Of a stretch of DNA of 64,000 nucleotides, positions 4,016 through 63,800 are shown one piece after another. The position numbers were made by a program, and so were the translations under genes. The stretch comes from Squalus acanthias. Its lineage: Eukaryota. Where the stretch lies: NCBI GenBank assembly GCA_030390025.1, contig CM059432.1, forward strand, positions 93,436,001 through 93,500,000, read 5' to 3'. The notes below the pieces were generated by a model. It did not search any database. It saw only the letters and a program-made list of their open reading frames with translations, and was not told the DNA's origin. How positions within the stretch are numbered: position 1 is the first letter of the stretch; each line of letters opens with the position of its first letter.

Positions 4016-4307
4016 TGCTCGAGGGGCTGAATGGCCTACTCCTGGTCCTAATGTTCCTATGTTCTTTCTCGTCCTCCTAAGGAGAGTACAGTTAAGAACA
4101 CAATTTTTTTTGTTGCTTCCCAGCCAGTCTACAGGGTGGTAGTTGAAACCATTAGTTGAGGTTTAACACTGGAAGTCATTTGATACCAGTTTGGGTCAAA
4201 CAACTAATACGATAGCAAAATACTGCAGATGCTGGAAATCCGAAATAACAACAGAAAACGCTGGAAAAACTCAGCAGGCCAGGCAGCATCCGTGGAGAGA
4301 GAAAGAG

Positions 4308-4344
4308 AGTTGACGTTTCAGGTCGATGACCTTTCATCAGAACT
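4308..4344 (-). ncRNA. Mirror copy of the minimal hammerhead ribozyme
   Basis: Exact reverse complement of 5576-5612. Confidence 0.85.
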
Positions 4345-5575
4345 GGGAAGAGCTGGAAATCAAATAGATTTAAGGCCAGGGTAAAGCTGGGAAAAGGGGG
4401 AGGGGATAAAGGAACAAAGGAGGAGATGAAGAGACATTAAGAGACATTAAGAGATATGCAAGGCTAGAGGTGGTGTTAATGTGACAGATTAAGGCTGAAT
4501 GAAGTGTGAAATCTACTGGCAGAATGAAGGACAGCTGCCAGCTTCTAGGAGGAAAAAAAAGGTGGGGGGGACAAATAAAAGGGTGGATAAAATAAAATAT
4601 AAATGTGATTGGAGCTGAGGTTATGATCTAAAATTGTTGAACTCGATATTGAGTCCAGAGGGCTGTAGCGTGCCTAAACGAAAGATGAGGTGCTGTTCCT
4701 CGAGCTTACGCTGAGCTTCCGTGGAACAGTGTATTAGGCCGAGGACGGTGAGGTCAGAGTGGGAGTGAAGCGGTGAATTAAAGTGACAGGCCACCGGGAG
4801 CTCGGGGTCCCCCTTACGGACTGAACGGAGGTGTTCCGCAAAGCGGTCACCCAATCTGCGTTTGGTCTCCCCAATGTAGAGGAGTCCACATCGTGAGCAG
4901 CGAATACAGTATACTAAATTGCAGGAAGTACAAGTAAATCGCTGTTTCACCTGGAAACACCCCTTCCAGGTGAAACAGCGATTTACTTGTACTTCCTGCA
5001 ATTTAGTATACTGTATTCGCTGCTCACGATGTGGACTCCTCTACATTGGGGAGACCAAACGCAGATTGGGTGACCGCTTTGCGGAACACCTCCGTTCAGT
5101 CCGTAAGGGGGACCCCGAGCTCCCGGTGGCCTGTCACTTTAATTCACCGCTTCACTCCCACTCTGACCTCACCGTCCTCGGCCTAATACACTGTTCCACG
5201 GAAGCTCAGCGTAAGCTCGAGGAACAGCACCTCATCTTTCGTTTAGGCACGCTACAGCCCTCTGGACTCAATATCGAGTTCAACAATTTTAGATCATAAC
5301 CTCAGCTCCAATCACATTTATATTTTATTTTATCCACCCTTTTATTTGTCCCCCCCACCTTTTTTTTCCTCCTAGAAGCTGGCAGCTGTCCTTCATTCTG
5401 CCAGTAGATTTCACACTTCATTCAGCCTTAATCTGTCACATTAACACCACCTCTAGCCTTGCATATCTCTTAATGTCTCTTAATGTCTCTTCATCTCCTC
5501 CTTTGTTCCTTTATCCCCTCCCCCTTTTCCCAGCTTTACCCTGGCCTTAAATCTATTTGATTTCCAGCTCTTCCC

Positions 5576-5612
5576 AGTTCTGATGAAAGGTCATCGACCT
5601 GAAACGTCAACT
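5576..5612 (+). ncRNA. Minimal type I hammerhead ribozyme (PLE-associated)
   Basis: agtt-CUGAUGA-a-aggtc(atc)gacct-GAAA-cGUC-aact: complete core, stems I and II, self-complementary ACGT in place of stem III; predicted cleavage after 5608. Confidence 0.85.
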
Positions 5613-6688
5613 CTCTTTCTCTCTCCACGGATGCTGCCTGGCCTGCTGAGTTTTTCCAGCGTTTTCTGTTGTTATTTGGGTCAAACAACTAATTCAAATA
5701 ATATTGAATTATCTTTGTAGTTAATTGAAAAGAATTATAAAGATACAAAGCTAATAGTTATCCAATAAACACTTTGGACAAACATATTGCTTACTGGATG
5801 CTCTAACTTTTCAAGAAGAACACTACCTGCCATTTTGATAGTCTGCAAAGCTTTAATTCCAATGCAGCTTTTTTGTTTACTTATATATGACAACTCCTAG
5901 ATGATGCAGTAATTTAAAGATGTTTAATATTAAGCCAATCAGAAATGTGCAAAGAAGGAGATACAAAAATGTATTATATGAAATGACAGCATTTGGGGAA
6001 AAAAAATCACCTGCCTCCTGTAACCAAGATGATAGTGCTGATTTTCAGAAGCAATATTGCTGATGTTATGACGCACATTTCTTCAAAATGTCATATGTTT
6101 TGTTCTTTCTGAAGCTAGGATCCTTCAGCTGTTGTATTAGAAATATATTGTGCTTTTATAACCTTGCAAAGCATTTATCAGGTCAACAGTGATTGGCTGA
6201 AAATAGTACACTATTTATTTAAATAAAAATATGCTTAGAATCAAAACCAGTACTGCATTGAAGGATGGAAAAGAGAAAGAAGGACGTAACTATATTTTTT
6301 ACCACAGTGGCACACCTTCTTCTGTTTCCAGAGAACAGATTGGTAGTTTGCAAACCCAACTATAACCACCAGTACCACTCTGCAGCTCATCTGATGCCAA
6401 AAACATTTGACTTACTATGGAGTTGACAGAAATAATTTTAACATCTTCCAGTGGTCAGAAAGGGACCTGATCTGCATTCAAGAAAAATACTAGACACTCA
6501 ATCTTCTACTCAGAACTCTAAACCATGTTTCCAATGTTGCATAGAAACAAGATTATTTTTCATGCAGTATATTCTGGGCTGACATTTGGAGAAATGTTAT
6601 CTAGAAAAATTTGCAATTAATTTTGGCTTGTAATCAAAGCAATTTAATTAATTCAAACTTTCTGACAAATTACTTTTAATGGTAATTT

Positions 6689-7002: not shown

Positions 7003-10000
7003 CCTGCAACAAGAATTTATGGAGCTAGGTAGCAGATTAAAAAGCAGGACCTCAAAGGTTGTAACCTCTGGATTACGCCCAGTGCCACGTGCTAGTGAGT
7101 ATAGGAATAGGAGGATAGAGCAGATGAATGCGTGGCTAAAGAGTTGGCGCAGGAGGGAGGGCTTTAGTTTCCTGGATCTGCTTCTGGGGAAGGTGAGACC
7201 TGTACAAGTCAGACGGGTTGCACCTGAACCGGAACGGGACCAACATCCTTGCGGGGAGGTTTGCTAGTACTGTTGGGGGGAGGGGGGGTTTAAACTAACT
7301 TGGCAGGGGGATGGGATACGGAGTGGAGCTATAGTAGGGGGTGATACACAGCCAAATATAGAGGAAAAAACAAGTCAGCCTGGAAGGCAGAGCAAATATG
7401 TAACGGCACAAGGGAGTATGGCAAGGCTGGATGGCATTTATTTTAATGCAAGGAGTCTTGCGAGTAAGGCAGATGAATTGAAGGTGTTGATGAACACATG
7501 GGAGTATGATATTGTTGCTATCACAGAGACATGGTTGAGGGAGGGGCAGGACTTGCAGCTCAATATTCCGGGGTATGGAATCTTCAGGCGAGACAGAGGG
7601 GGGTGTAAAAGAGGAGGGGGTGTCGCAATATTAATCAAGGAGTCAATTACTGCTGTAAGGAGGGATGATATCTTAGCAGGTTCCTCTATTGAGGCCATAT
7701 GGGTAGAACTTAAAAACAAAAAGGGGGCAAGCACTTTGCTGGGAGTGTACTATAGGCCCCCAAACAGTCAGGGGGAGATAGAGGAACAGATATGTAAGCA
7801 AATCTCAGAAGTGTAGAAATAATAGGGTAATAATAGTAGGGGATTTCAACTTCCCCAATATTAATTGGGATAGTCAGAGTGTGAAGGGCTTAGAGGGTGC
7901 GGAATTCTTAAAGTGCATCCAGGAGAGCTTTTTGAGCCAGCATGTAGAAAGTCCTACAAGAGAGGGGGCGGTACTGGACCTAATTCTAGGGAATGTAGCC
8001 GGGCAAGTGGTAGATGGGTCAGTAGGAGAGCATTTTGGTGACAGTGACCACAATTCGGTGAGATTTAAGGTAGTCATGGAAAACGACAAAGATGGACTGG
8101 AAATAAAGGTTCTAAATTGGGGGAAGGCCGATTTTAATATGATAAGGCAGGATCTGGCCAAAGTGGACTGGGATCAACCACTTGTAGGAAAATTCACATC
8201 AGAGCAGTGGGAGTCTTTCACAAAGGAAATAGAGAGTAAAATGCCAACATGTTCCCGTAAAGGTCAAGGGTGGGACCAACAAGCCCAGGGAACCCTGGAT
8301 GTCAAGGGATATACGAGAATGGATTAGGAAAAAAAGGGAGGCTTTTGGCAGATACAAAGGACTAAAAACAGTGGAAGCCCTAGAGGAGTATAGAAAGTGC
8401 AGGGGGGTACTTAAAAAAGAAATTAGGAGAGCGAAGAGGGGGCATGAAAAAACACTGGCGGGCAAAATAAAGGAAAATTCCAAGGTGTTTTATAAGTATA
8501 TTAAGGGCAAGAGGATAACCAGGGAAAGAGTAGGGCCCATTAGGGACCAAAGTGGCAATCTGTGTGTAGAGCTGGAAGATGTAGGTGAGGTTTTAAATGA
8601 ATATTTTGCATCTGTGTTCACTATGGAGAAGGACAATTTAGGCATAGAAATCAGGCAGGGGGATTGTGATATACTTGAACAAATTAGTAGAGGGAGGAGA
8701 TACTAGCGGTTTTATCGGGCTTAAAAGTGGATAAATCCCCAGACCCAGACGAGATGTGTGAGGCAAGGGAGGAGATTGCAGGGGCTCTGACACAAATTTT
8801 CAGAACCTCTCTGGCCACAGGGGAGGTGCCAGAGGACTGGAGAACAGCTAACGTAGTACCATTATTTAAGAAGGGTAGTAGGGATAAACCAGGGAATTAC
8901 AGGCCAGTGAGCCTAACATCAGTGGTAGGGAAATTATTGGAAAAAATTCTGAGGGACAGAATTAGTCTCCACTTGGAGAGGCAAGGATTAATCAAGGATA
9001 GTCAGCATGGCTTTGTCAGGGGGAGATCATGTCTAACCAATTTGATTGAATTTTGAGAGGGGGTGACTAGGTATGTGGATGAGGGTAGTGCAGTTGATGT
9101 AGTCTACATGGACTTTAGTAAGGCTTTTGACAAAGTCCCGCATGGGAGACTGGTCAAGAAGGTAAGAGCCCATGGGATCCAGGGCAATTTGGCACATTGG
9201 ATCCAAAATTGGCTTAGTGGCAGGAGGCAGAGGGTGATGGTCGAAGGTTGTTTTTGTGACTGGAAGCCTGTGTCCAGTGGTGTACCGCAGGGATCGGTGC
9301 TGGATCCTTTGCTGTTTGTAGTGTACATTAATGATTTAGATATGAATGTGGGAGGTATGATCAGTAAGTTCGCAGATGACACGAAAATTGGTGGGGTGGT
9401 AAATAGTGAGGAGGGAAGCCTCAGGCTACAGGACGATATAGACGGGTTGGTTAGATGGGCAGAACAGTGGCAAATGGAATTTAACCCTGAAAAGTGTGAG
9501 GTGATGCATTTTGGGAGGACTAACAAGGCAAGGGAATACACAATGAATGGTAGGACCCTAGGAAGGACAGAGGATCAGAGGGACCTTGGTGTGCATGTAC
9601 ATAGATCCCTGAAGGCAGCAGGACAGGTAGATAAGGTGGTTAAGAAGGCATATGGGATACTTGCCTTCATTAGTCGAGGCATAGAATATAAGAGCAGGGA
9701 GGTTATGATGGAGCTGTACAAAATGCTAGTTAGGCCACAGCTGGAATACTGTGTGCAGTTCTGGTCACCACATTATAGGAAGGATGTGATTGCATTGGAG
9801 AGGGTGCAGATGAGATTCACCAGGATGTTACCTGGGTTGGAGCGCTTCAGCTATGAAGAGAGACTGGACAGGCTGGGGTTGTTTTCCTTAGAGCAGAGAA
9901 GGCTGAGGGGGGACCTGATTGAGGTGTACAAAATTATGAGGGGCATAGATAGGGTAGATAGAAAGGAACTTTTCCCCTTAGTAGAAGGGTCAATAACCAG

Positions 10001-10287
10001 GGGGCATAGTTTCAAGGTAAGGGGCAGGAGGTTTAGAGGGGATTTGAGGAAAAACTTTTTCACCCAGAGGATGGTTGGAATCTGGAACTCACTGCCTGAA
10101 AGGGTGGTAGAGGCAGGAACCCTCACAACATTCAAGAAGCATTTAGATGAGCACTTGAAACGCCATAGCATACAAGGCTACGGACCAAGCGCTGGAAAAT
10201 GGGATTAGAATAGACAGGGCTTGATGGCCGGCGCGGACACGATGGGCCGAAGGGCCTCTTTCTGTGCTGTATAACTCTATGACTCTA
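7003..10287 (+). mobile_element. 5'-truncated CR1 (HER1-like) LINE: ORF1 C-terminus plus disrupted ORF2 (APE and RT)
   Basis: YFNARSL..DIVAITETW, YYRPP and SDH (APE); DFSKAFD, SGVPQGSVL and KFADD (RT). Split into ORFs 7418, 7881, 8299, 8727 and 9063 by stops/frameshifts. Tail ctctatgactctatga. Confidence 0.95.
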
Positions 10288-11504: not shown

Positions 11505-14206
11505 AATTTTTTAATTCATTCATGGGATGTGGACATCACTGGCAAGGTCAGCATTTATTGCCCATCCCTAATTGCCTTTGAGAAGGTGGTGGTGAGCCGC
11601 CTTCTTGAACCGCTGCAATTCGTATGGTGAAGGTACTCCCATAGTGCTGTTAGGGAAGGAGTTCCAGGATTTTGACCCAGCGACGATGAAGGAACAGTGA
11701 TATACTTCCAAGTCAGGATGGTGTGTGACTTAGAGGGGAACTTGGAGGTGATGGTGTTCCCATGTGCCTGTTGCCCTTGGTGGTAGAGGTCGTGGGTTTG
11801 GGAGGTACTGTCGAAGAAGCCTTGGTGAGTTGTTCTTGTAGATGGTACATACTGCAGACACGGTGCGCCGGTGGTGGAGGGAGTGAATGTTTAGATGGTG
11901 GATGGGGTGCCAATCAAGCGGGCTGCTTTGTCCTGGATGGTGTTGAGCTTCTGGAGTGTTGTTGGAGCTGCACTCATCGAGGCAGGTGGAAAGCATTCCA
12001 TCGCTCTCCTGACGTGTGCCTTGTAAATGGTGGAAAGGCTTTGGGAGTCAGGAGGTGATTCACTCGCTGCAAAATGCCCAGCCTCTGATCTGTTCTTGTA
12101 GCCACAGTATTTATGTGACTGGTCCAGTTAAGTTTCTGGTCAATGGTGTCCCCCCCAGGATGTTGATGGTGGGGGATTCGACGATGGTAATGCCATTGAA
12201 TGTCAAAGGGAGGTGGTTCGACATTGGCTTTTTGGAGATGGTCACTTGTGTGCCAGGCAAAGTGAGACGTTCTGTAGGATGTATCTGAGTTTGTAATAGA
12301 CACAATCCTGGAACTCCCTACCTAACAGCACTGTGGGAGTACCTTCACCACACGGACTGCAGCGGTTCAAGATGGCGGCTCACCACCACCTTCTCAAGGG
12401 CAACAAATGCTGGCCTTGCCAGTGACGCCCAGATCCCATAAGCGAATAAAAAAAAAGTCCAAGCCTGAATGTTGTCCAGGCCTTGCTGCATGCAGGCACG
12501 GACTGCTTCATTATGAGGAATTGCAATCATCAGCAAACATTCCCATTTCTGACCTTATGATGGAGGGAAGGTCATTGATGAAGCAGCTGAAGATGGTTGG
12601 GCCTAGGACAATGCCCTGAGGAACTGCTGCGGCGATGGCGATGTCCTAGTGCTGAGAGGATTGGCCTCCAACAACCACTTTGTGCTAGGTATGACTCCAG
12701 CCAGTGGACAGTTTTCCCCTGACTTCAATTTTACTAGGGTTCCTTGATGCCACACTCAATTAAATGCTGCCTTGATGTCAAGGGCAGTCACTCTCGCCTC
12801 ACCTCTGGAATTCAGCTCCATGTTTCGCTGTAATGAGGTCTGGAGCCGAGTGGTCCTGGCGGAACCCAAACTGAGCATCGGTGAGCAGGTTATTGGTGAG
12901 TAAGTGCCGCAAGATAGCACTGTCGACGACTCCTTCCATCACTTTGCTGATGATTGAGAGTAGACTGATGGGGTGGTAATTGGCCGGATTAGAATTGTCC
13001 TGCTTTTTGTGGACAGGAGATACCTGGGCAATTTTCCACTTTGTCGGATAGATGCCAATGTTGTAGCTGTTCTGGAAAACCTTGGCTAGAGGCACAGCTA
13101 GTTCTGGAGCACAAGTCTTCAGCACTACAACCGGGATGTTATCGGGGCCCATAGGCTTCGCTGTATCCAGTGCGCTCAGCCATTTCTTGATATCACCTGG
13201 AGTAAATTGAATTGGCTGGATACTGGCTTCTGTGATGGTGGGGTCCTCAGGAGGAGGCAGAGATGGATCGTCCACTTATCATTTCTGGCTGAAGATGGTT
13301 GCAAATGCTTCAGCCTTGTCTTTTGCACTCACGTGTTGGGCTCTGCCATCATTAAGGATGGGGATATTCATGGAGCCTCCTCCTCCCCCCATTAGTTGTT
13401 CAATTGTCCACCACCATTCACGACTGGATGTGGCAGGACTGCAGGGCTTTGATCTGATCCATTGGCTGTGGGATAGCTTAGCTCTGTCTACCGCATGCTG
13501 CTTCCACTGTTTAGCATCCACGTAGTCCTGTGTTGTAGCTTCACCAGGCTGGCAATTCATTTTTAGGTACGCCCGGACCTGCTCCTGGCATGCTCTTCTA
13601 CACTCCTCATTGAACCAGGGTTGGTCCTCTGGCTTGATGGTAATGGTAGGGTGAGAAATATGCCAGGCCATGAGGTTACAGATTGTGGTGGAATACATAT
13701 CCAGGGATGGTGATGGAGGCGTCTAGGACGTTGGCTGAAAGGTGCGAGTACGACTACGTCAGTCTATGGGACAGCTCTCCCACCGATGTTAGTGAGGGGA
13801 CTTTGCAGGGTCGACTGGGCTGGGTGTGCCTCGATCGATACCGGGTGGTGCAGCTGGTTTTACTCTTATTATAGTTTTCCAAAGTGGTTTTGATACAACT
13901 GAATGGCTTGCTAGGCCATTTCAGAGGGCAGTTAAGACTTGACCACATTGCTGTCTGGCGTCACAAATAGCCCAGACTGGGTAAGGACAGCAGAATTCCT
14001 TCCCTAAAGGGCATTAGTGAACCAGATGGGTTTTTACGACAATCTGGTAGTTTCATGGTCACCATTACTGATACTAGCTTTTTATTCCAGATTTATTTAA
14101 AAAACTGAATTTAAATTCCCCAGCTGCCGTGTTGGGATTTGAACTCATGTCTCTGGATCATTATTCCAGGCCTCTGGATTAATAGTCCAGTAACATAACC
14201 ACTATG
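11505..14206 (-). mobile_element. Internally deleted CR1-group LINE (family B) with tRNA-like 5' head
   Basis: RT-region fragments (PANYHPISLLSIISKVME, QFGFRQ, DQKLNWTSHIN), degraded APE start near 13760-13815, B box at 14135-14146. Confidence 0.85.
12305..12456 (+). mobile_element. Short 3' tail of family B LINE inserted in opposite orientation inside the larger copy
   Basis: Matches 146-300 and ends in an A-run. Confidence 0.8.
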
Positions 14207-14895
14207 AATCATAGAAAATTACAGCACAGAAGGAAGTCATATGGCCCGTCGTATCTGTGCCAGCCGAAAGAACGATCCAGCCTAATCCCACTTTCCAGCT
14301 CTTGGTCCATAGCCCTGTAGGTTACGGCTCTTCAATGCACATCCAAGTACTTTTTAAATGTGATGAGGGTTTCTGCCTCTCCCACCCTTTCAGGCAGTGA
14401 GTTCCAGACCCCCACCACCCTCTGGCTGAAAATAGTTCTCCTCAACTCCCCTCTAATCCTTCTACCAATTACTTTATATCTATGCCCCTGGTTATTGACC
14501 TCTCTGCTAAGGGAAATAGGTCCTTCCTATCCACTCTATCTAGGCCCCTCAATTTTATACACCTCAATTAAGTCTCCCTCAGCCTCCTCTGTTCCATGAA
14601 AACAACCCCAGCCTATCCAATCTTTACTCGTAGCTAAAATTCTCCAGTCCTGGCAACATCCTCGTAAATCTCCTCTGTACCCTCTCTAGTGCAATCACAT
14701 CTTTCCTGTAATGTGGTGACCAGAAGTGCACACAGTACTCTAGCTGTGGCCTAACTCGTGTCTTATACAGTTGAAGCATAACCTCCCTGCTCTTATATTC
14801 TATGCCTTGGCTAATAAAGGAAAGCATCCCGCATACCTTCTTAACCACCTTATCTACCTGTCCTGCTACCTTCAGGGATCTATGGACATGCAACC
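14207..14895 (-). mobile_element. CR1 (HER1-like) 3' fragment
   Basis: VRPQLEYCVHFWSPHYRKDVIALERVQRRFTRM in ORF 14624..15019. Confidence 0.9.
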
Positions 14896-14917
14896 AAATT
14901 CCCTCAATATATATTAA

Positions 14918-16515
14918 ATGTACCCAACTTCCTTTTCTGGCTGACATTGTTAATGGTTCTCTCTCCTCAGGTACTCTCCCCCTTTCCCTCAAATCTGCCG
15001 TCATCACCCCTCTCCTCAAAAAACCAACCCTTGACCCCTCTGTCCTTGCAAACTACCGCCCCATCTCAAACCTTCCTTTCCTCTCCAGAGTCCTTGAACG
15101 TGTTGTCGCCTCCCAAATTCGTGCCCATCTTTCCCGCAACTCCATGCTTGAATCCTTCCGATCAGGTTTCCGCCCTTGCCACAGTACCGAAACGGATCTC
15201 ATCAAAGTCACAAATGACATCCTTTGTGACTGTGACAAAGGTAAACTATTCCTCCTCGTCCTTCTTGACTTGTCTGCAGCCTTTGACACGGTTGACCACT
15301 CCATCCTTCTCCAACGCCTCTCCACTGCCGTCCAGCTGGGTGGGACTGCACTCGCCTGGTTCCATTCTTATCTATCTAATTGTAGCCAGAGAATCACCTG
15401 CAATGGCTTCTCTTCCCGCTCCCACATCGTTATCTCTGGTGTCCCCCAAGGATCTATCCTTGGCCCCCTCCTATTTCTCATCTACATGTTGCCCCTTGGC
15501 GACATCATCTGAAAACACAGAGTCAGTTTCCACATGTACACTGATGACACCCAGCTGTACCTCACTACCACTTCTCTCGACCCCTCCACGGTCTCTAAAT
15601 TGTCAGACTGCTTGTCCGACATCCAGTTCTGGATGAGCAGAAATTTTCTCCAATTAAATATTGGGAAGGCCGAAGCCATTGTTTTCGGTCTCCGCCACAA
15701 ACTCCGTTCCCTAGCCACTGACTCCATCCCTCTCCCTAACATGTGTCTGACGCTGAACCACACTGTTCGCAACCTTTGGTGTCAAATTTGACCCTGAAAT
15801 GAGCTTCCGACCACATATCCGCAGCATAACTAAGAATGCCTATTTCCACCTCCGTAACAGCGCCCATCTCCACCCTTGCCTCAGCTCATCTGCTGCTGAA
15901 ACCCTCATCCATGCCCTTGTTACCTCTAGACTTGACTATTCCAACGCACTCCAGGCTGGCTTCCCACATTCTACCCTACGTAAACTTGAGGTCATCGAAA
16001 ACTTGGCTGCCTGTGTCCTAACTCGCACCAAGTCCCGTTCACCCATCACCCCTGTGCTCGCTGACCTACATTGGCTGCCGGTTAAGCAGCGCCTCGATTT
16101 CAAAATTATCATCTAGTTTTCAAATCTCTCCATGGCCTTTCCTCCTCTATCTCTGTAATTGTCTTCAGCCACCCCCCCCCCACCGAGATATCTGCACTGC
16201 TCTAATTCTGCCCTCTTGCGCATCCCTGATTATAATCGCTCAACTATTGGTGGCCGTGCCTTCTGTTGCCTAGGCTCGAAGCTGTGGAATTCCCTGCCTA
16301 AACCTCTCTGCCTCTCTATCTTTCTTTCCTCCTTTAAGACGTTCCTTAAAACTTACCTCTTTGACCAAGCTTTTGGTCACCTGCCCTAATTTCTCCTTAT
16401 GTGGCTTGGTGTCAAATTTTGTGTCTTATAATACTCCTGTGCAGCGCCTTGGGACGTTTTACTAATTAAAGGCGCTATATAAATATAATATAAACACAAG
16501 TTGTTGTTGTTGTTA
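14918..16515 (+). mobile_element. L2 LINE 3' half (RT, disrupted)
   Basis: NYRPISNLPFLS, DLSAAFDTVDH, GVPQGSILGP, YTDDTQLY, LHWLPV; tail ggcgctatataaat...(ttg)n. Confidence 0.93.
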
Positions 16516-27585: not shown

Positions 27586-28812
27586 ATCCCAAGTGGCATC
27601 AACCTTCTGCTGACACACGCCGTACAGTCTCCTCTGCTCTTAAAGCCCCGCCGTAGCTATCTCCACTTACTTTATCCCATGTTCCAACCTTTAGCCCCAG
27701 TCACCACAATCTCTCCCCACAGCAGCTCTCAAGTCAGAAGTGTGATAGAATACTCATCAGTCACCTGAATGGGTGCAGCCACACACAACAACACTCAAGG
27801 AGCTCAACATCACCTGTTTGATCGGCATATCCTGCCACTGACCTCAGTATCACAAACCATACTCTAGGTCCTGGACTACCCATGAGTAACCCCACTAGAG
27901 ATCAACTGTGCATATAAAAGTTTTGAGATGTCCAACACTTAGGTATCACACTTGGTTACAAGCCTGAAGTTCTGTGTCACACTTGAAATGAATATAAAAA
28001 AGCAAGAAAGTCACTTCTTAATTTTTTTCTTGTGAGCTGTCAAAGATTTACAAGCAGCTGCCCATCGAGAGAAACTTTTCCAGCAACGGAAAGTATCTTC
28101 CAAGTGATCCTAGGTTGTGCCCAAGAGCAATTGCTCTCTAATTGACCTCAAGATGCATCTATTTACATCAATCAGACCTTGTGCCTTAAAGGGACAAGCT
28201 ACCTTATATACTGCTACACTTTGCAGTGATATGCTGTGTGTTACATAGTGCAATACGCCCTATCCTCCAACTCATTGTAAGCAACACCAACTGAGATCTG
28301 CTAGTCACTTTATTAAAAATAATTGTCCATTGGAAAAAATACCCATCTTTACACAAAGTGGGTAAAATAAATTGTAGAGAACTAAAGACCTATGCTATTT
28401 AATACAGCAGGGTTATAAATTAATCTGACCCGAGCTTGTAGTTCAAAAAATGTTTGAATTTTAGTATGAAGGTGAATAATATCCAGCTACAAATCACTTT
28501 AAATTTGGTTATGAAAATATTTTCCTAAAAAAGGTACATTGTAAAAGTTTTGTTTTGGGTGTTACGGGTATCTAAAAACAAGAAAGAAAATAAGCATCGA
28601 TATGGGATAATTCAATCACTCTGATGAGGAAATAGAAAAGGAATTCATAAACACCGTGTGCAATTTTGAAAACAACAGTATTTCAACAACACTGTTGACT
28701 AAGACGAGGAGACCCCGTTTGCCAGATCCTCCTCGACCAAATGTAGGAGAATCAGCACTTCTAAGAAACAGGCTTGAATGAGTTACAAAAAATAACAAAC
28801 AAAATGGCTCAC

Positions 28813-29339
28813 CTCTGCATCTTCACCCTCCACATGTTCATTCTCACCCAGCTCCTTTATTGGAAGTGGCGGAGGATCATCTTCGGTAATCATTATCTGC
28901 TCTGTGGAAATACTCTGCCGATTCATTTTCACCTTGCCTACTGTTGCATATTCTGCGGTACCATCAGCAAGCTCAGGATTTTGACCTTGTACCATGATAT
29001 TCAAACCTGCATTTTCTGACTGATCATAAATTTCATTGGCCACACTGCCAGATTCCTCTTTCAGGTCCTTCACAGTTTCATAGAGAGAGTCTTCAATGAT
29101 TATGTCCTGCGAAGAGCTGTCCTTTAGCACTTCATAGGTGTCATATGCTCCACGAGAGGTCTTGCCTTCAGTCACTTCTGGAGATCCTGTGTTTGGTACT
29201 GAATCATTCCCAGGTATTTGTGGCAGTTCTCTACTCTGAGGACATTTTGAAGACTTACAAGAACTATCTTGTTGGTTTGCCACAATTGGAGGCAATGCAT
29301 CTTCAGAAGAATGAACAGTTGCACTCTCATCTGAAAGAA
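28813..29339 (-). CDS. PAG1: PAG1 large cytoplasmic exon (527 nt) with YEVL, YETV and YATV motifs and a PPPLP segment
   Basis: Part of ORF 28783..29478. KCPQSRELPQIP, YEVLKDSSSQD, LYETVKDLKE, AEYATV and PPPLPIKELGENE match PAG1. Acceptor actttgacag| at 29339; donor GAG|gtgagc at 28813. Confidence 0.96.
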
Positions 29340-29805
29340 CTGTCAAAGTGAAATCATTTACCAACAGTTCCATTTTAAAAATCAATGTTATTATGAGGCA
29401 TGTAAAATTCTTTGCATTTGGGTAAAAATTACTCCAAGATCTAACAACCAACATAAAAGAAATGTAAACAGAGACCACTGTTGGTGAGAGTGAACAGAAG
29501 CAACAAATGAAAAAGTGCCAATGAGATGCTTTTGATATAAAATGAACAGAGTATCAGGCAATGACAATGACAAAAGAACCAACACTCTGACAAATACATG
29601 AAGAAATTTTAAAGTGACATTTCCCAAATGGAGCATTTAATCCGTTTTAATAACCAGGAATCTCCCCATTACAAATTAGTTTAAGAAAAAAATACTGTTA
29701 TTAAATCTTAATGTGTGCAACTTTTTTTAGGGTTGCTTCAAGCCAAATAATTAAAATGTTACTTTAAATGCCACGAGATTACTAAATACTAAATTGCTGA
29801 CTTAC

Positions 29806-31774: not shown

Positions 31775-31974
31775 NNNNNNNNNNNNNNNNNNNNNNNNNN
31801 NNNNNNNNNNNNNNNNNNNNNNNNNNNNNNNNNNNNNNNNNNNNNNNNNNNNNNNNNNNNNNNNNNNNNNNNNNNNNNNNNNNNNNNNNNNNNNNNNNNN
31901 NNNNNNNNNNNNNNNNNNNNNNNNNNNNNNNNNNNNNNNNNNNNNNNNNNNNNNNNNNNNNNNNNNNNNNNNNN
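31775..31974. other. Assembly gap (200 N)
   Basis: Run of N. Confidence 1.
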
Positions 31975-32447: not shown

Positions 32448-33434
32448 CTGGTAATAGAAAGGCACATGCAACATTAGATCATCCCATATATGTACATATG
32501 ATGTGCTCAAACAAGACAGAATTTTTTTTAATAGCAGTTACCCTTCACTCCTAATTGACCCATGACAGTTAAGTGATTTGTGCATTATACTGTAATGAAA
32601 TGTGCTTGTTTGAATGCTCCATAATATAGCACAAAATACAATCTTAACATATCAGCTATACTAATGATCCCAAACCACTTTATAACGAGACTTTACGGGC
32701 GAGGGAAAAAAAGTATAAAAAAGTAAAGAGGAGCTGTCAACATTACTCCAGAATGCATCCTTGGCAATTGTCCCTTGCATGCAAAGTTTGTAATCACTTG
32801 CTGAGTCAGGTTTATCAGATCATTCATGAGGCTATCACAAATCTGAGTTACTTTTTGATACATATTAATAGAAGTCTCCTTTTTTGCATAAAAATAATAA
32901 AAATTGTGAATGGAGGTAAAAAATGGTACTTTAGCAGTTGAGATGTTCTCTGCAATCCAGCTTGGTGCATGAAGAGTTTTCCCAATCCACAGTTTCTAGG
33001 TAGAACACCTCATTAAGTTGTCCATTGTCACACGAGTGGTAGTGATAGGGAACCATGAAAAGCTGACACTATCATTCTGATTTTGTTCTGAGAGTATTTC
33101 CTGATGTTTACACAGCAGTACTGCTGCTGGTCATGAACAAGGCTACAATCTGAAGCACTCTACTTCCAAGTGAATAGCTGTAAGATAACTGGAAGCTAAG
33201 GAGCTGACTTGTGTTACATTTTTAACCCTCCCCCAACACAAACACTCAAACAAAAATAGATAAAATTTTTGGTGAGTGCGCAGAATATGATGGAATATAA
33301 TGTGTAACTGTACAGATCTTTGAACATCCGGTAGTACATGAGGCATAATAATCAGGAGGCAGTACATTCATCTGAAAATAAAAACATACTATCTCCCTCC
33401 CCAAGAGAATCACAACAAGACAGGCTCATAAATT

Positions 33435-33660
33435 ACGATAGCAAAATACTGCGGATGCTGGAGATCTGAAATAACAACAGAAAACGCTGGAAAAACTCAG
33501 CAGGCCAGGCAACATCCATGGAGAGAGAAAGAGAGTTAACGTTTCAGGTCGAAACCCTTCGTCGGAACTGAGAGAGCAAGAAATAAACAGATAAAAATGC
33601 AAGGGGGAGGCTGGGGGGAGGAATAAAAGAACAAAAGGGATGGTCTTTAGTGAGTAGAGA
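33435..33660 (-). mobile_element. Short Penelope 3'-tail insertion with variant hammerhead motif (33534-33569)
   Basis: Same terminus acgatagcaaaatactgc as 4209; TSD cataaatt (33427-33434, 33661-33668); reverse strand agtt-CCGACGA...GAAAcgtt-aact. Confidence 0.85.
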
Positions 33661-34034
33661 CATAAATTAAATGGATTACAAGATGCCTAATTTAATTAAC
33701 CATTGGTCACGATTTGCAGAGCCATTCAGTCAAAAAAACAAATGAAAAGAAATCCATTGGTCTGTGCTGACCTAGTTGACCTCAGCCAGGCAAGTAGTGA
33801 GGGCAATACAGTTAGCCCCCGATTTTCCTGGGCTATGGGAGGAGGAGGGAAAGAAACAGCTGAGGTTCCTATTTCAGATTGTTATCTAGACAAAGTCTTC
33901 AGAAGAGGAGTAGAAAAATAGGGAGAAAATTGAAGTATAAAGTAAATATTGCACCTTTTCAGACATTACTTTGTAATATATGATCATACCACTTATTACT
34001 TAAAAGCAGAAATTTTAAAAAAATTGGACTCTCG

Positions 34035-56285: not shown

Positions 56286-56385
56286 CTGACGAAAGGTCAT
56301 CGACCTGAAACATTAACTCTCTTTCTCTCCCCACCGATGCTGCCTGACCTGCTGAGTATTTCCAGCATTTTAGTTTTTATTTTAT
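56286..56385 (+). mobile_element. Penelope tail fragment with truncated hammerhead core
   Basis: CTGACGA-aaggtcatcgacct-GAAA-catt-aactct followed by the same tail as 5612-5677; the 5' strand of stem I is replaced by a local duplication. Confidence 0.8.
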
Positions 56386-59527: not shown

Positions 59528-59564
59528 ATGACTATGACTACTGTCCAAAACAATGGGAGCATTG

Positions 59565-60490
59565 GTTATGATCTGAAGTTGTTGAAATCAATGTTGAATC
59601 AGGAAGGTTGCAAAGCACCTAATTGAAAGATGAGGTGCTGTACCTCAAGCTTCCATTGAGCTTCATTGGAACAGTGCAGGAGGCCGAGGACAGAGGTCAG
59701 AGTGGGAGTGGAATGGGGAATGGGGAATTAAAGTGACAGCTGACCAGAAGCTCAGTCACGCTTGTGGACTGAACGGAGGTGCGCAGCAAAGCGATCATCC
59801 AATCTGCGTTTGGTCTCCCTAATGTCGAGGAGACTGCATCATGAGCAGCTAATACAGAAGTGAAAGGGCAGGTGTTGCATCTCCTGCACTTTCATGGGAA
59901 GGTGCCGTGGGAAGGGGAGCAGGTGTTGGGGGTGATGGAAGAGTGGACCAGGGTGTCGCGGAGCAAACGGTTTCTTCACAATGCTAAAAGTGGAGGGGAG
60001 GGGAAGATGTGTTTGGTGGTGACCGTGCTGGAGGTGGTGGAAATGACGGAGGACGATCCATTGAAGGTGGAGGCTGGTGGGGGCGGGGGGGACACAGGGG
60101 ACCCTATCATGGTTCTGGGCGGGAGGGCAAGGGGTGAGGGCAGAAGTGCGGGAAATGGGATGGACATGGTCGAGATCACCGTCAACCACAGTGGAGGGGA
60201 AACCTCGGTTGAGGAAAAAGGAAGACATATCAGAAGCACTGGTGTGGAAGGTGGCAGTGTCAGAACAGATGCAAAGAAGAAACTGGGAGAATAGAATAGA
60301 GTCCTTACAGGAAGCGGGGTGAGAGGAAGTGTAGTCAAGGTAGCTATGGGGGTCGGGGAGCTTATAGTAGATATTGGTGAACAGCCTATCCCCAGAAATG
60401 GAGATTGAGAAGGTGAGGAAGGGAAGGGAAGAGTTGGAGATGGGCCATGTGAAGCAGAGGAAGGGGTGGAAATTGGAAACAAAAAGGAAA
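59565..60490 (-). mobile_element. Decayed Penelope-like element (RT C-terminus, linker, GIY-YIG)
   Basis: LPFLTFSISISGDRLFTNIYYKLPDPHSYLDYTSSHPASCKDSI; 59565-59860 resembles 4620-4910. Confidence 0.88.
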
Positions 60491-61924
60491 GGTAAGAGCG
60501 TCTCCAGGTGATGGTTAATGTACCTAATCAGAGTTAAAATGCTGCCCATCACACTCCATATAGGTGAAAGTGCTCCAGTCTTATTCACCTTTGCAAAAAA
60601 AAACTTTGGAGGACACACTTCAATCAAATCCAAAGTGCAAATTAACTCTCATCAGCACTTACTGCCCCATGGGAAGAGAATGCCCTGAAACTACAGGATG
60701 TTTAAACAAATTTGTTTTGAAAATGAGTTATTGGATTCTGTTGTAAGGAACTACAGCTAATAATTGTGGGTATTGGGGAGGGGAATGAGGGATGAGCAGA
60801 TGGCCTAAATTTGAAGTAGTGCTAAAAAATAAACGACTGAAAAATAAATGCTCACAGCTCAGTATTTGAAAGGATTTTGAAAAGTGAGAATCTTAAACAT
60901 TTTAATAAGCTAGTGAATTTGGTAATGTCTCACCGGGGTTAGTCACACTGTAGTTGCCACTCATCTTGCAACTAGAGCTTCTATAGATTTATTGTGGTAT
61001 CACCACATTTCCAATTCAGGTCTTTTTAATATCCACTTATAAAAAAAAGTATTTTGCCTCATCAAGGTGTGACAAAGCCAGTGGCTGGGATTGGAACATT
61101 ATTCCAGAACTTCTGTCCCCCTGGGCTAGTAACGAACAATTCCAGGTCCACCGCCCCATTCAGTGCAACAGAATTCCAGCCTCCGAGGAACACCCCCTGC
61201 TGCACTAGCATCGCATTGGGTTTCCATCATTATAGCTCTCTCTGAAGGAAAGTGCCCAATTAACACCAATTCATGGCCAGTTTTATGGTGTGAAATTTTG
61301 ATGATTTGGAACTGGATTGAAATTGCTTAAACTCCTTGCACTAATGGCGCTGCTAAAATTCATTTGCTAGGTGCAGTACTCAATCAAGGTTCGTTAAACA
61401 GCCAACTCACACAGCTGTGGATGGAATGGGGGTTGACAGCACTCCTTGCACACAGAAAGCAAGACTTAGCAGCATCCAGTACTGCTGGATTTTCTACTAA
61501 CTGGAAAAAACAATGTTTTGTGTTGATGAATGCTTTAATCTGTATTTTACCAACAGAACTAAGCTATCTCTTATCAAGTACCAGAAAATCGTGTGGCTGT
61601 AAAGTAGCCTGCCAAAGTTAGAGAGAGAGAGGTGGACTTTGTACCAGCTGAAGATGTACTGCAACTGGTACAAAATCAACTTCAACATGAAATAACCGCT
61701 TGGGAGGTGGTAGCTTTGCTTCCATCAATATTTTTATTGGCATTGAAGGTGAGTTTTGATGGACCAAATGGTCTTTTCTCATCCTTGACTTTTCATATGT
61801 TCTAATATAACACATTAGGATTTTTATTGAGCTGGTAGCAGACTAATGTGACATTAACACCAAAAGTATAGCATAAAAATGGTGTTAGAACCCAGGAGAT
61901 TTATCCCATCATTCCACTCTATAT

Positions 61925-62375: not shown

Positions 62376-63342
62376 TGTATATATTTAAATTGTTTTTTTC
62401 TTTTACTTCCTTCGTTTCATCGCTAGATACTACTCCAGCATTGCCTAGAGTCATCCATCCTAAACATCCGCTGGATAGATTTCTGTAAATGGCAGTTTGT
62501 CACAATAAATACTTGAATCTTCCATCATTCTTTACAATTTTACTATAAACAGGAGGAGTCACTGAAACCAAGGCCTCCATGCAATTTAGTTACTTACTTC
62601 ACTTCCATTTACCATGGCACTGAACACAAATATCATTAATAGCACGGGAAGAAATAAAAAGTGAAATCACAGGAGAGAACACAAAACTGACAGCTTTGTT
62701 AAAATGACCCATGCATGACCAACAAGCAGATATAATTTGTACAGAATTCCAGCTGAATGGAAAATCAATCTTCACAAATCTAGGCAACAATTTTCATCAC
62801 ATTGGATAAAGAGATGGCTAGGGTACAGAAAGCAAAGTGTAGGAGGCAAGTGGATGTTTTTCAGATTGACTGGATGTAGGTAGTGGAATGGGGATCTGTG
62901 CCGGGACCTCATTTGTTTGAGTTTATAAAAATGACCAGGACATAGGCACAAAAAGAATGAAAGCAAAGTTTTCTGCTATCAAATTAGGGATGTGGCAGAA
63001 TGTAAGGATGAATGCAGGAGTTTGCTGACAGATTAGCAAAATGAGCAAATGGGTGGCACACACATTTCAATGCAGAGAAGTGTGAAATAGTACATTTGGG
63101 GGAAAGAAAGTATACCCTAAAAAGCAAGATTTTAAAATTAAAAGTAATTCAGACCCCATTTTAAAGTCATACCTTATGGCCTTATTTTGTTTAATACTTT
63201 GATTTTTAATTTATAGTTAAATAGCAAAACTGAGGACAATTTGGGAAGAAGAGAAGCCAAGTTGGTTGAAGCTGAGGAACAAGGAGGCAAAACTGAGGTT
63301 CTGAAGCATCATCACTGGGAAAAAGGTGTAATTACAACTTGA

Positions 63343-63620
63343 TGCGGAGATGCCGGTGTTGGACTGGGGTGGACAAAAATGAGAAGTCGCACAACACCAG
63401 GTTATAGTCCAACAGTTTTATTTGAAATCACAAGCTTTCGGAGCTGTTGCTCCTTCGTCGGGTGAAATAAAGAGATACAGAATCGCCAAAGCATATATAT
63501 ATGCTTTGGCGATTCTGTATCTCTTTACTTCACCCGACGAAGGAGCAACAGCTCCGAAAGCTTGTGATTTCAAATAAAACTGTTGGACTATAACCTGGTG
63601 TTGTGCGACTTCTCATTTTT
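63343..63620. mobile_element. Second palindromic Penelope-type tail insertion (different family)
   Basis: Arms 63375-63497 and 63498-63620, no loop, one mismatch; 32-nt extra left tail; direct repeat taattacaacttga at 63329-63342 and 63620-63633. Confidence 0.88.
63530..63567 (+). ncRNA. Minimal hammerhead-like motif with U4C core variant (mirror at 63428-63465, minus strand)
   Basis: tcac-CCGACGA-a-ggagc(aaca)gctcc-GAAA-gctt-gtga; self-complementary AAGCTT at stem III; AATAAA just downstream. Confidence 0.7.
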
Positions 63621-63800
63621 AATTACAACTTGACAGGTTTACATAGGCAGTTTCTGTTATGAATGTGGACAGATATTTATAATTGGAAAGTTGTACAGGA
63701 AGTAAAATCTTCTAGGCAGGAAATACACACAGAAATACTATTGTTTCATATACAACAGATAAAATACTTCACTACAACTGGCTGTCAAGGCAAAGACATT

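Follow-up and report, generated by a model that had tools for sequence, protein, structure and literature searches.

The palindrome at 63329..63633 is very probably a single, probably young and heavily 5′-truncated insertion of an endonuclease-bearing Penelope-like retroelement (PLE), whose two copies lie head to head. By "the window" we mean the whole 64-kb stretch of Squalus acanthias DNA that was analysed. The head-to-head layout of PLEs is already published and is not new. The first-pass annotation had read the locus as a retro-insertion, and insertion by a PLE is indeed the most likely origin, judging by the tail, the inversion, the hammerhead motif and the target-site duplication (TSD).

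Structure of the Palindromic Element

The features of the element are as follows.

63329..63342, no strand: left TSD copy of 14 nt, of which the final three letters (63340-63342) also fit the family 3′ end
63343..63374, minus strand: tail, a 3′ extension that the right arm lacks; 32 nt are unique, and the junction overlaps bring it to at most 36 nt
63375..63497, minus strand: left arm, a 5′-truncated pseudo-LTR copy with its sense on the minus strand; 123 nt, private change at 63467
63428..63467, minus strand: left-arm hammerhead motif (minimal type I), with its core CCGACGA beginning at 63461, a 5-bp stem II and GAAA
63493..63502, no strand: (AT)5, the self-complementary centre at which folding back probably occurred
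63498..63620, plus strand: right arm, an inverted tail-less copy; 123 nt, ending in a T run whose last T is common with the TSD
63528..63567, plus strand: right-arm hammerhead motif (minimal type I), with its core CCGACGA beginning at 63534; the predicted fold contains stems I and II
63620..63633, no strand: right TSD copy, 14 nt

All parts of the anatomy described in the first-pass annotation were found again, namely the 123-bp arms with one mismatch, the 32-nt tail on the left only, the 14-nt TSD and a hammerhead motif in each arm. The arms (63375-63497 and 63498-63620) adjoin with 0 nt between them, and their single mismatch is at 63467/63528. The TSD 14-mer TAATTACAACTTGA is present at both 63329-63342 and 63620-63633. 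The chance of such a 14-nt match is about 7e-9 at the given register, and this element is the one case in the whole window of a 14-mer repeated at TSD spacing. The junctions overlap the target by 3 nt on the left and by 1 nt on the right; because these overlaps blur the length of the tail, it should be given as 32-36 nt and not as an exact number. Both 3′ ends of the element face outward, and both truncation points meet at the AT run. Contigs of sister copies, whose run is RNA by guess only, align up to 63499, and the AT run is probably sequence of the family itself.

The absence of coding sequence reported earlier was also confirmed: no ORF of at least 120 aa overlaps the element, and a tblastn comparison of 41 family-1-like proteins with the window gave no match at E<=1 inside it. 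No second copy of the palindrome family was found elsewhere in the 64-kb window.

Family 1 in the Same Window

A PLE family, called here family 1, is represented in the window by three copies and a related ORF piece.

4190..5693, no strand: head-to-head PLE with arms of about 714-717 nt and a 7-nt spacer, 19-nt TSDs included
33427-33669, minus strand: single 5′-truncated tailed copy with a 9-nt TSD (33427-33435, 33661-33669); its core is also CCGACGA
56286-56385, plus strand: short tail-less copy starting just before the hammerhead core, with no clear TSD found
59553-60530, minus strand: degraded family-1-like RT-endonuclease ORF piece, 78% to family 1 over 59553-59857

The body of the first of these elements (4209-5674) has 1466 nt (1.47 kb) between its 19-nt TSDs; the "4.2-kb element" of the first-pass annotation is the element at about 4.2 kb, and the number is its position. 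Its left tail measures 34-38 nt, a range that reflects overlaps of 1 and 3 nt at the junctions. It holds the GIY-YIG end of an ORF (domain E 2.2e-05) whose closest protein relatives carry names from skates, rays and sharks, and in two of the four family-1 homologues scanned both RT and GIY-YIG are present. Among the four family-1 3′ ends in the window, two are tailed and stop at the identical base (the left end of the 4.2-kb locus and the copy at 33.4 kb), and two are tail-less (the right end of the 4.2-kb locus and the copy at 56.3 kb). The ORF piece at 59553-60530 is cut off after its stop codon by a GC-rich repeat.

Homology of the palindromic element with the family-1 3′ end was considered and rejected. 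Their local alignment scored 16, no better than shuffled sequence (mean 16.5), and 63.6% of 500 shuffles equalled or exceeded it, so the earlier statement that the two sequences are unlike each other holds. The same annotation took the common architecture for convergence of two families. Such agreement is only to be expected, since PLEs as a rule show both a 30-40 bp tail and a truncated copy in inverted orientation.

Probable Affiliation with PLEs

The element at 63329..63633 combines an optional 30-40 bp tail with two classes of 3′ end (32-36 nt here), an inverted 5′-truncated copy, a terminal repeat that carries a minimal type I hammerhead, recognised by motif and stems, and a TSD of variable length (14 nt here, whereas family 1 has examples of 19 nt and of 9 nt). 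A coding continuation was not seen in the contigs of the palindrome family, which are too short to reach an ORF; an RT/GIY-YIG ORF could be traced for family 1 only. Family 1 shares the head-to-head layout and has the GIY-YIG domain attached.

The published systems are compared here from the available portions of the respective papers. There, an inverted 5′-truncated copy and a 30-40 bp tail are given as typical of PLEs (PMC8557442), and the same traits are restated for annotators (PMC8969392). The units of Naiads and canonical PLEs resemble our element in having the inverted 5′-truncated copy by the 5′ end and a 30-40 bp tail at one end only; Naiads are described in the same text as being without canonical hammerheads, whereas the element at 63329..63633 has a minimal one (PMC8557442). 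In the PLEs of Adineta vaga a 31-bp tail and TSDs of 8-10 bp were found, and the palindromes at the junctions were read as self-priming (PMC3846280). The units Pen2a_Av and Pen2_Av have inverted pseudo-LTRs, one of them tailed, TSDs and a palindromic inverted junction, as here. They hold, however, an ORF or a long internal part, while our element consists of 123-bp terminal-repeat arms only, is loop-less and has a TSD of 14 nt instead of 8-10 bp (PMC3846280).

An experimental parallel is PAc, a PLE of the Poseidon clade from the lizard Anolis carolinensis. In vitro both strands of its target are cut and extended, and reverse transcription starts at two sites which bound the tail (PMC11167929). 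PAc resembles our element in that the tail is the stretch between two start sites, and also in its AT-rich targets and in the hammerhead within the terminal repeat. The PAc ORF begins inside hammerhead stem II; in our element ACG stands in place of that start codon, and the frame is closed after 18 codons. The inverted copy is left unexplained in the available part of the PAc paper (PMC11167929).

Among the papers listed by a literature search, none dealt with the shark-type family or with the two-primer model considered below.

Sister Copies in Public Runs

Contigs from four of the 24 runs found (X1, X5, X6 and X10, from two organisms) were placed on 62700-63525. The four runs gave 15,541, 10,949, 2,801 and 2,254 placed records, with depth concentrated on 63344-63455. 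The palindrome family is very abundant in one of the two sampled organisms and present in the other: in X1 the summed contig depth reached 6.4 million on the arm, compared with about 8.5 on a flank contig. These sums do not give a copy number and support only the words "very abundant". An exact-pattern search for the family gave no match in viral contigs and none in two metagenome scans. Four matches in genome contigs were rejected, as 4.3 were expected by chance and the likeness extended over only 19-37 nt.

One cluster of loose ends, with flanks that differ between records, lies at 63340, where 162 records in X1, 141 in X5 and 25 in X10 were counted among the best-supported rows, which leave aside 879 others. 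A second cluster lies at 63366-63382: the same kind of rows include 5 records at 63366 in X1, 28 at 63370 and 59 at 63380 in X5, 12 at 63380 in X10 and 37 at 63382 in X6, although variants at 63378, 63379 and 63381 bias the clip positions near 63380. The distance of about 30-40 nt between the clusters indicates that sister copies occur both with and without the tail. The loose-end consensus suggests that many of them extend about 5 nt or more beyond the tail end at 63340. The tail is apparently up to about 40 nt long in some sister copies, a range rather than a fixed length.

The two end clusters, taken with the two start sites of PAc, suggest that PLE integration includes a step which recurs and of which the tail is the trace. 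In this respect the first-pass annotation, which proposed a fixed step with overhangs of 32 and 34 nt, was right about the recurrence; the fixed lengths dissolve into ranges of 32-36 nt for the palindrome and 34-38 nt for family 1.

In the loose-end consensus of X1, X5, X10 and X6 an ATG in sense orientation follows the tail end (63335-63346), with low agreement (0.38-0.52). The ATG beyond the tail end is possibly the ORF start of a full-length element.

A stem-loop between hammerhead and tail, in which the tail pairs with the upstream repeat, was predicted and was not significant (z -1.5; -0.6 and -1.55 in family 1). The frequent variant sites 63378, 63379 and 63381 sit in the loop of this predicted structure, and the tail-less end lies at the loop edge (63375-63385).

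Further joints between opposite strands were detected at 63399/63436 and 63410/63455, with offsets of 37 and 45 nt, which shows that inversion points and arm lengths differ between copies. At 63467 the base is G in 244,859 of 245,415 summed depth in X1, and this almost universal G means that the mismatch is private to the left arm.

A 464-nt contig of X1 and a 242-nt contig of X5 align to the left flank exactly up to 63342 and then continue for 187 and 114 letters, respectively, which are unlike the tail. These contigs probably represent the empty allele, where X1 may be the assembly's own sample. A probable empty allele in turn suggests that the insertion is young and polymorphic.

Hammerhead Motifs

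In the motifs of both arms the palindromic AGCU occupies the place of stem III, and the core reads CCGACGA against the consensus CUGANGA, that is, U4 is changed to C. A search of the whole window with Rfam returned no matches at the gathering score. At position 63460 the canonical core base accounts for 269,060 of 431,085 summed depth (62%) in X1 and for 61,060 of 144,792 (42%) in X5. Since the canonical base is common there in other copies, the U4-to-C core of both arms is a subfamily trait that was copied from the template.

As far as the available text of PMC4209133 goes, the minimal hammerheads of metazoan PLEs share with these motifs an extra base before stem II, a G-C closing pair and a palindrome replacing stem III, and differ from them at core position 4, which is C in our element. 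The same source describes pairs of minimal hammerheads 100-700 bp apart on opposite strands in metazoans, and reports that such motifs depend on a partner in tandem for cleavage, which is weak (PMC4209133). The U4C change reduces the in vitro activity of a viroid hammerhead ribozyme, according to the part of PMC3088659 available.

The hammerheads of both arms are probably inactive at this locus. Read-through RNA is predicted to fold into one long duplex; the opposite strands, the U4C core and the burial of the motifs in this 123-bp duplex are the grounds on which we regard them as probably idle. The "twin hammerheads" of the first-pass annotation are therefore twins in a restricted sense: each arm does carry the motif, with U4 changed to C in the core, and because the motifs lie on opposite strands no tandem dimer can arise from one transcript of the locus.

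Alternative Origins

It is unlikely that the element is instead a non-autonomous, hammerhead-bearing short retroelement (SINE-like or related to retrozymes) which has no ORF of its own and borrows a PLE enzyme; the mechanism of insertion would be unchanged in that case. Such PLE derivatives have been described (available parts of PMC8557442 and bioRxiv 10.64898/2026.07.22.740005), and no ORF was seen in the element at 63329..63633 or in the short contigs of its family. The contig depth also drops steeply upstream of the hammerhead, with subfamilies diverging at 63444-63466, but 5′ truncation alone explains this fall in depth. In other genomes most minimal hammerheads are thought to be truncated PLEs, as stated in the accessible text of PMC4209133. 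The non-LTR retrozymes are similar to our element in being non-coding, in their type I hammerhead and in their kinship with PLE terminal repeats; as presented in the available portion of bioRxiv 10.64898/2026.07.22.740005, however, they form tandem arrays, whereas we see one inverted pair with a TSD. The retrozyme version of this explanation suffers from the same difference: where head-to-tail tandem copies were looked for, two inverted copies were found. We also count against a non-autonomous origin that related shark terminal repeats presumably sit downstream of a GIY-YIG ORF.

That the whole palindrome moves as a fixed unit, whether as a MITE, a fold-back DNA transposon or a re-mobilised hairpin, is very improbable, even though it is short and non-coding and its inverted arms are nearly perfect. 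MITEs and other TIR DNA transposons have symmetric terminal inverted repeats and short, superfamily-specific TSDs. Here the ends are unequal, with a 32-nt segment outside the left arm only, the TSD has 14 nt, and a hammerhead motif is present in each arm. Other copies invert elsewhere and have varied ends, with the reservation that contigs show perfect palindromes poorly, and the depth in X5 is almost nil beyond the centre (just 1.52 at 63512-63525), which weighs little, as contigs break at palindromes. Least credible of all is an artefact of sequencing or assembly (a fold-back chimera) or an inverted duplication after insertion. None of the contigs listed bridges the filled allele, as such an artefact would have it, and repeats do break contigs; against this, the whole unit is flanked by a perfect 14-nt TSD, one base distinguishes the arms, the right arm has an end that is typical of the family, and family 1 is built on the same plan.

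Possible Mechanism of Insertion

If the locus is a PLE insertion, then we can ask: How were one tailed and one tail-less copy placed head to head? The TSD suggests that the GIY-YIG enzyme would nick both target strands 10-14 nt apart. Each free 3′ end of the target may then have become connected with one of the two sites at which the element preferably starts, as the geometry and the overlaps indicate: with the tail end on the left (3-nt overlap) and with the T run 32-36 nt upstream on the right (1-nt overlap). Two start sites and the extension of both strands have been demonstrated in vitro for PAc alone. Only one arm would be tailed because the two target ends join at two different start points. 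The cDNA would halt at the self-complementary AT run, fold back and copy itself into a loop-less palindrome, and repair would afterwards duplicate the target. The hammerheads would be passengers of the copied terminal repeat.

For two independent cDNAs, truncation at coinciding points is estimated roughly at 0.4-7.5% per element under a uniform model. Since independent truncations seldom coincide so closely, snap-back is favoured at 63329..63633. Joints offset by 37 and 45 nt in sister copies indicate that tight snap-back is not the sole route. Which strand folded is masked by the AT run at 63493..63502. Arkhipova et al. 2013 preferred self-priming on an antisense template (PMC3846280, available part), a route with which the present data are also compatible.

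The centre spacer of the family-1 element (4955-4965) provides some polarity. In the endonuclease reading frame it goes better with the tail-less arm, where it gives K-H-P-F, than with the tailed arm, where it gives K-G-C-F; in 34 homologues the third place of this motif is T in 13, S in 9, P in 2 and C in 1. Snap-back from the tailed end alone cannot yield a spacer on the tail-less arm. If the spacer of this one element does belong to the tail-less arm, the strand that folded was started at the tail-less site, and the tail needs a second primer. We therefore propose, quite tentatively and with the odds still against it, that PLE head-to-head insertions arise by two primers plus snap-back, in which both target nicks prime, one per start site; the cDNA begun at the tail-less site would fold back, and the second primer would supply the tail.

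Neighbourhood and Significance

The remaining features of the window are the following.

7268-10208 and 12799-15636: remains of LINEs, in which domains of AP-endonuclease and RT are recognised
28786-29553, minus strand: ORF encoding a PAG (PAG1-like) domain (E 7.9e-40), probably an exon of a host gene
31775-31974: uninterrupted (AT)n, about 200 nt long

An upstream transmembrane exon of the PAG1-like gene was searched for and not found. The left flank of the palindrome contains, at 63145-63260, an AT-rich repeat of greater age, numerous copies of which have diverged.

As a single locus with a published PLE layout the insertion is of small importance. Its family, however, is abundant and has young, probably polymorphic copies, in which tail ends, junction overlaps and fold-back points can be read base by base. 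Such reading bears on how PLE inverted copies are formed, a process which the available text of PMC8557442 calls undefined. If the polarity seen in family 1 holds across many young copies, the origin of PLE inverted copies could be readable from an assembly alone. For annotators the locus is a warning that palindromes of this kind, 250-300 bp long, may be retro-insertions rather than MITEs or genes for microRNAs.
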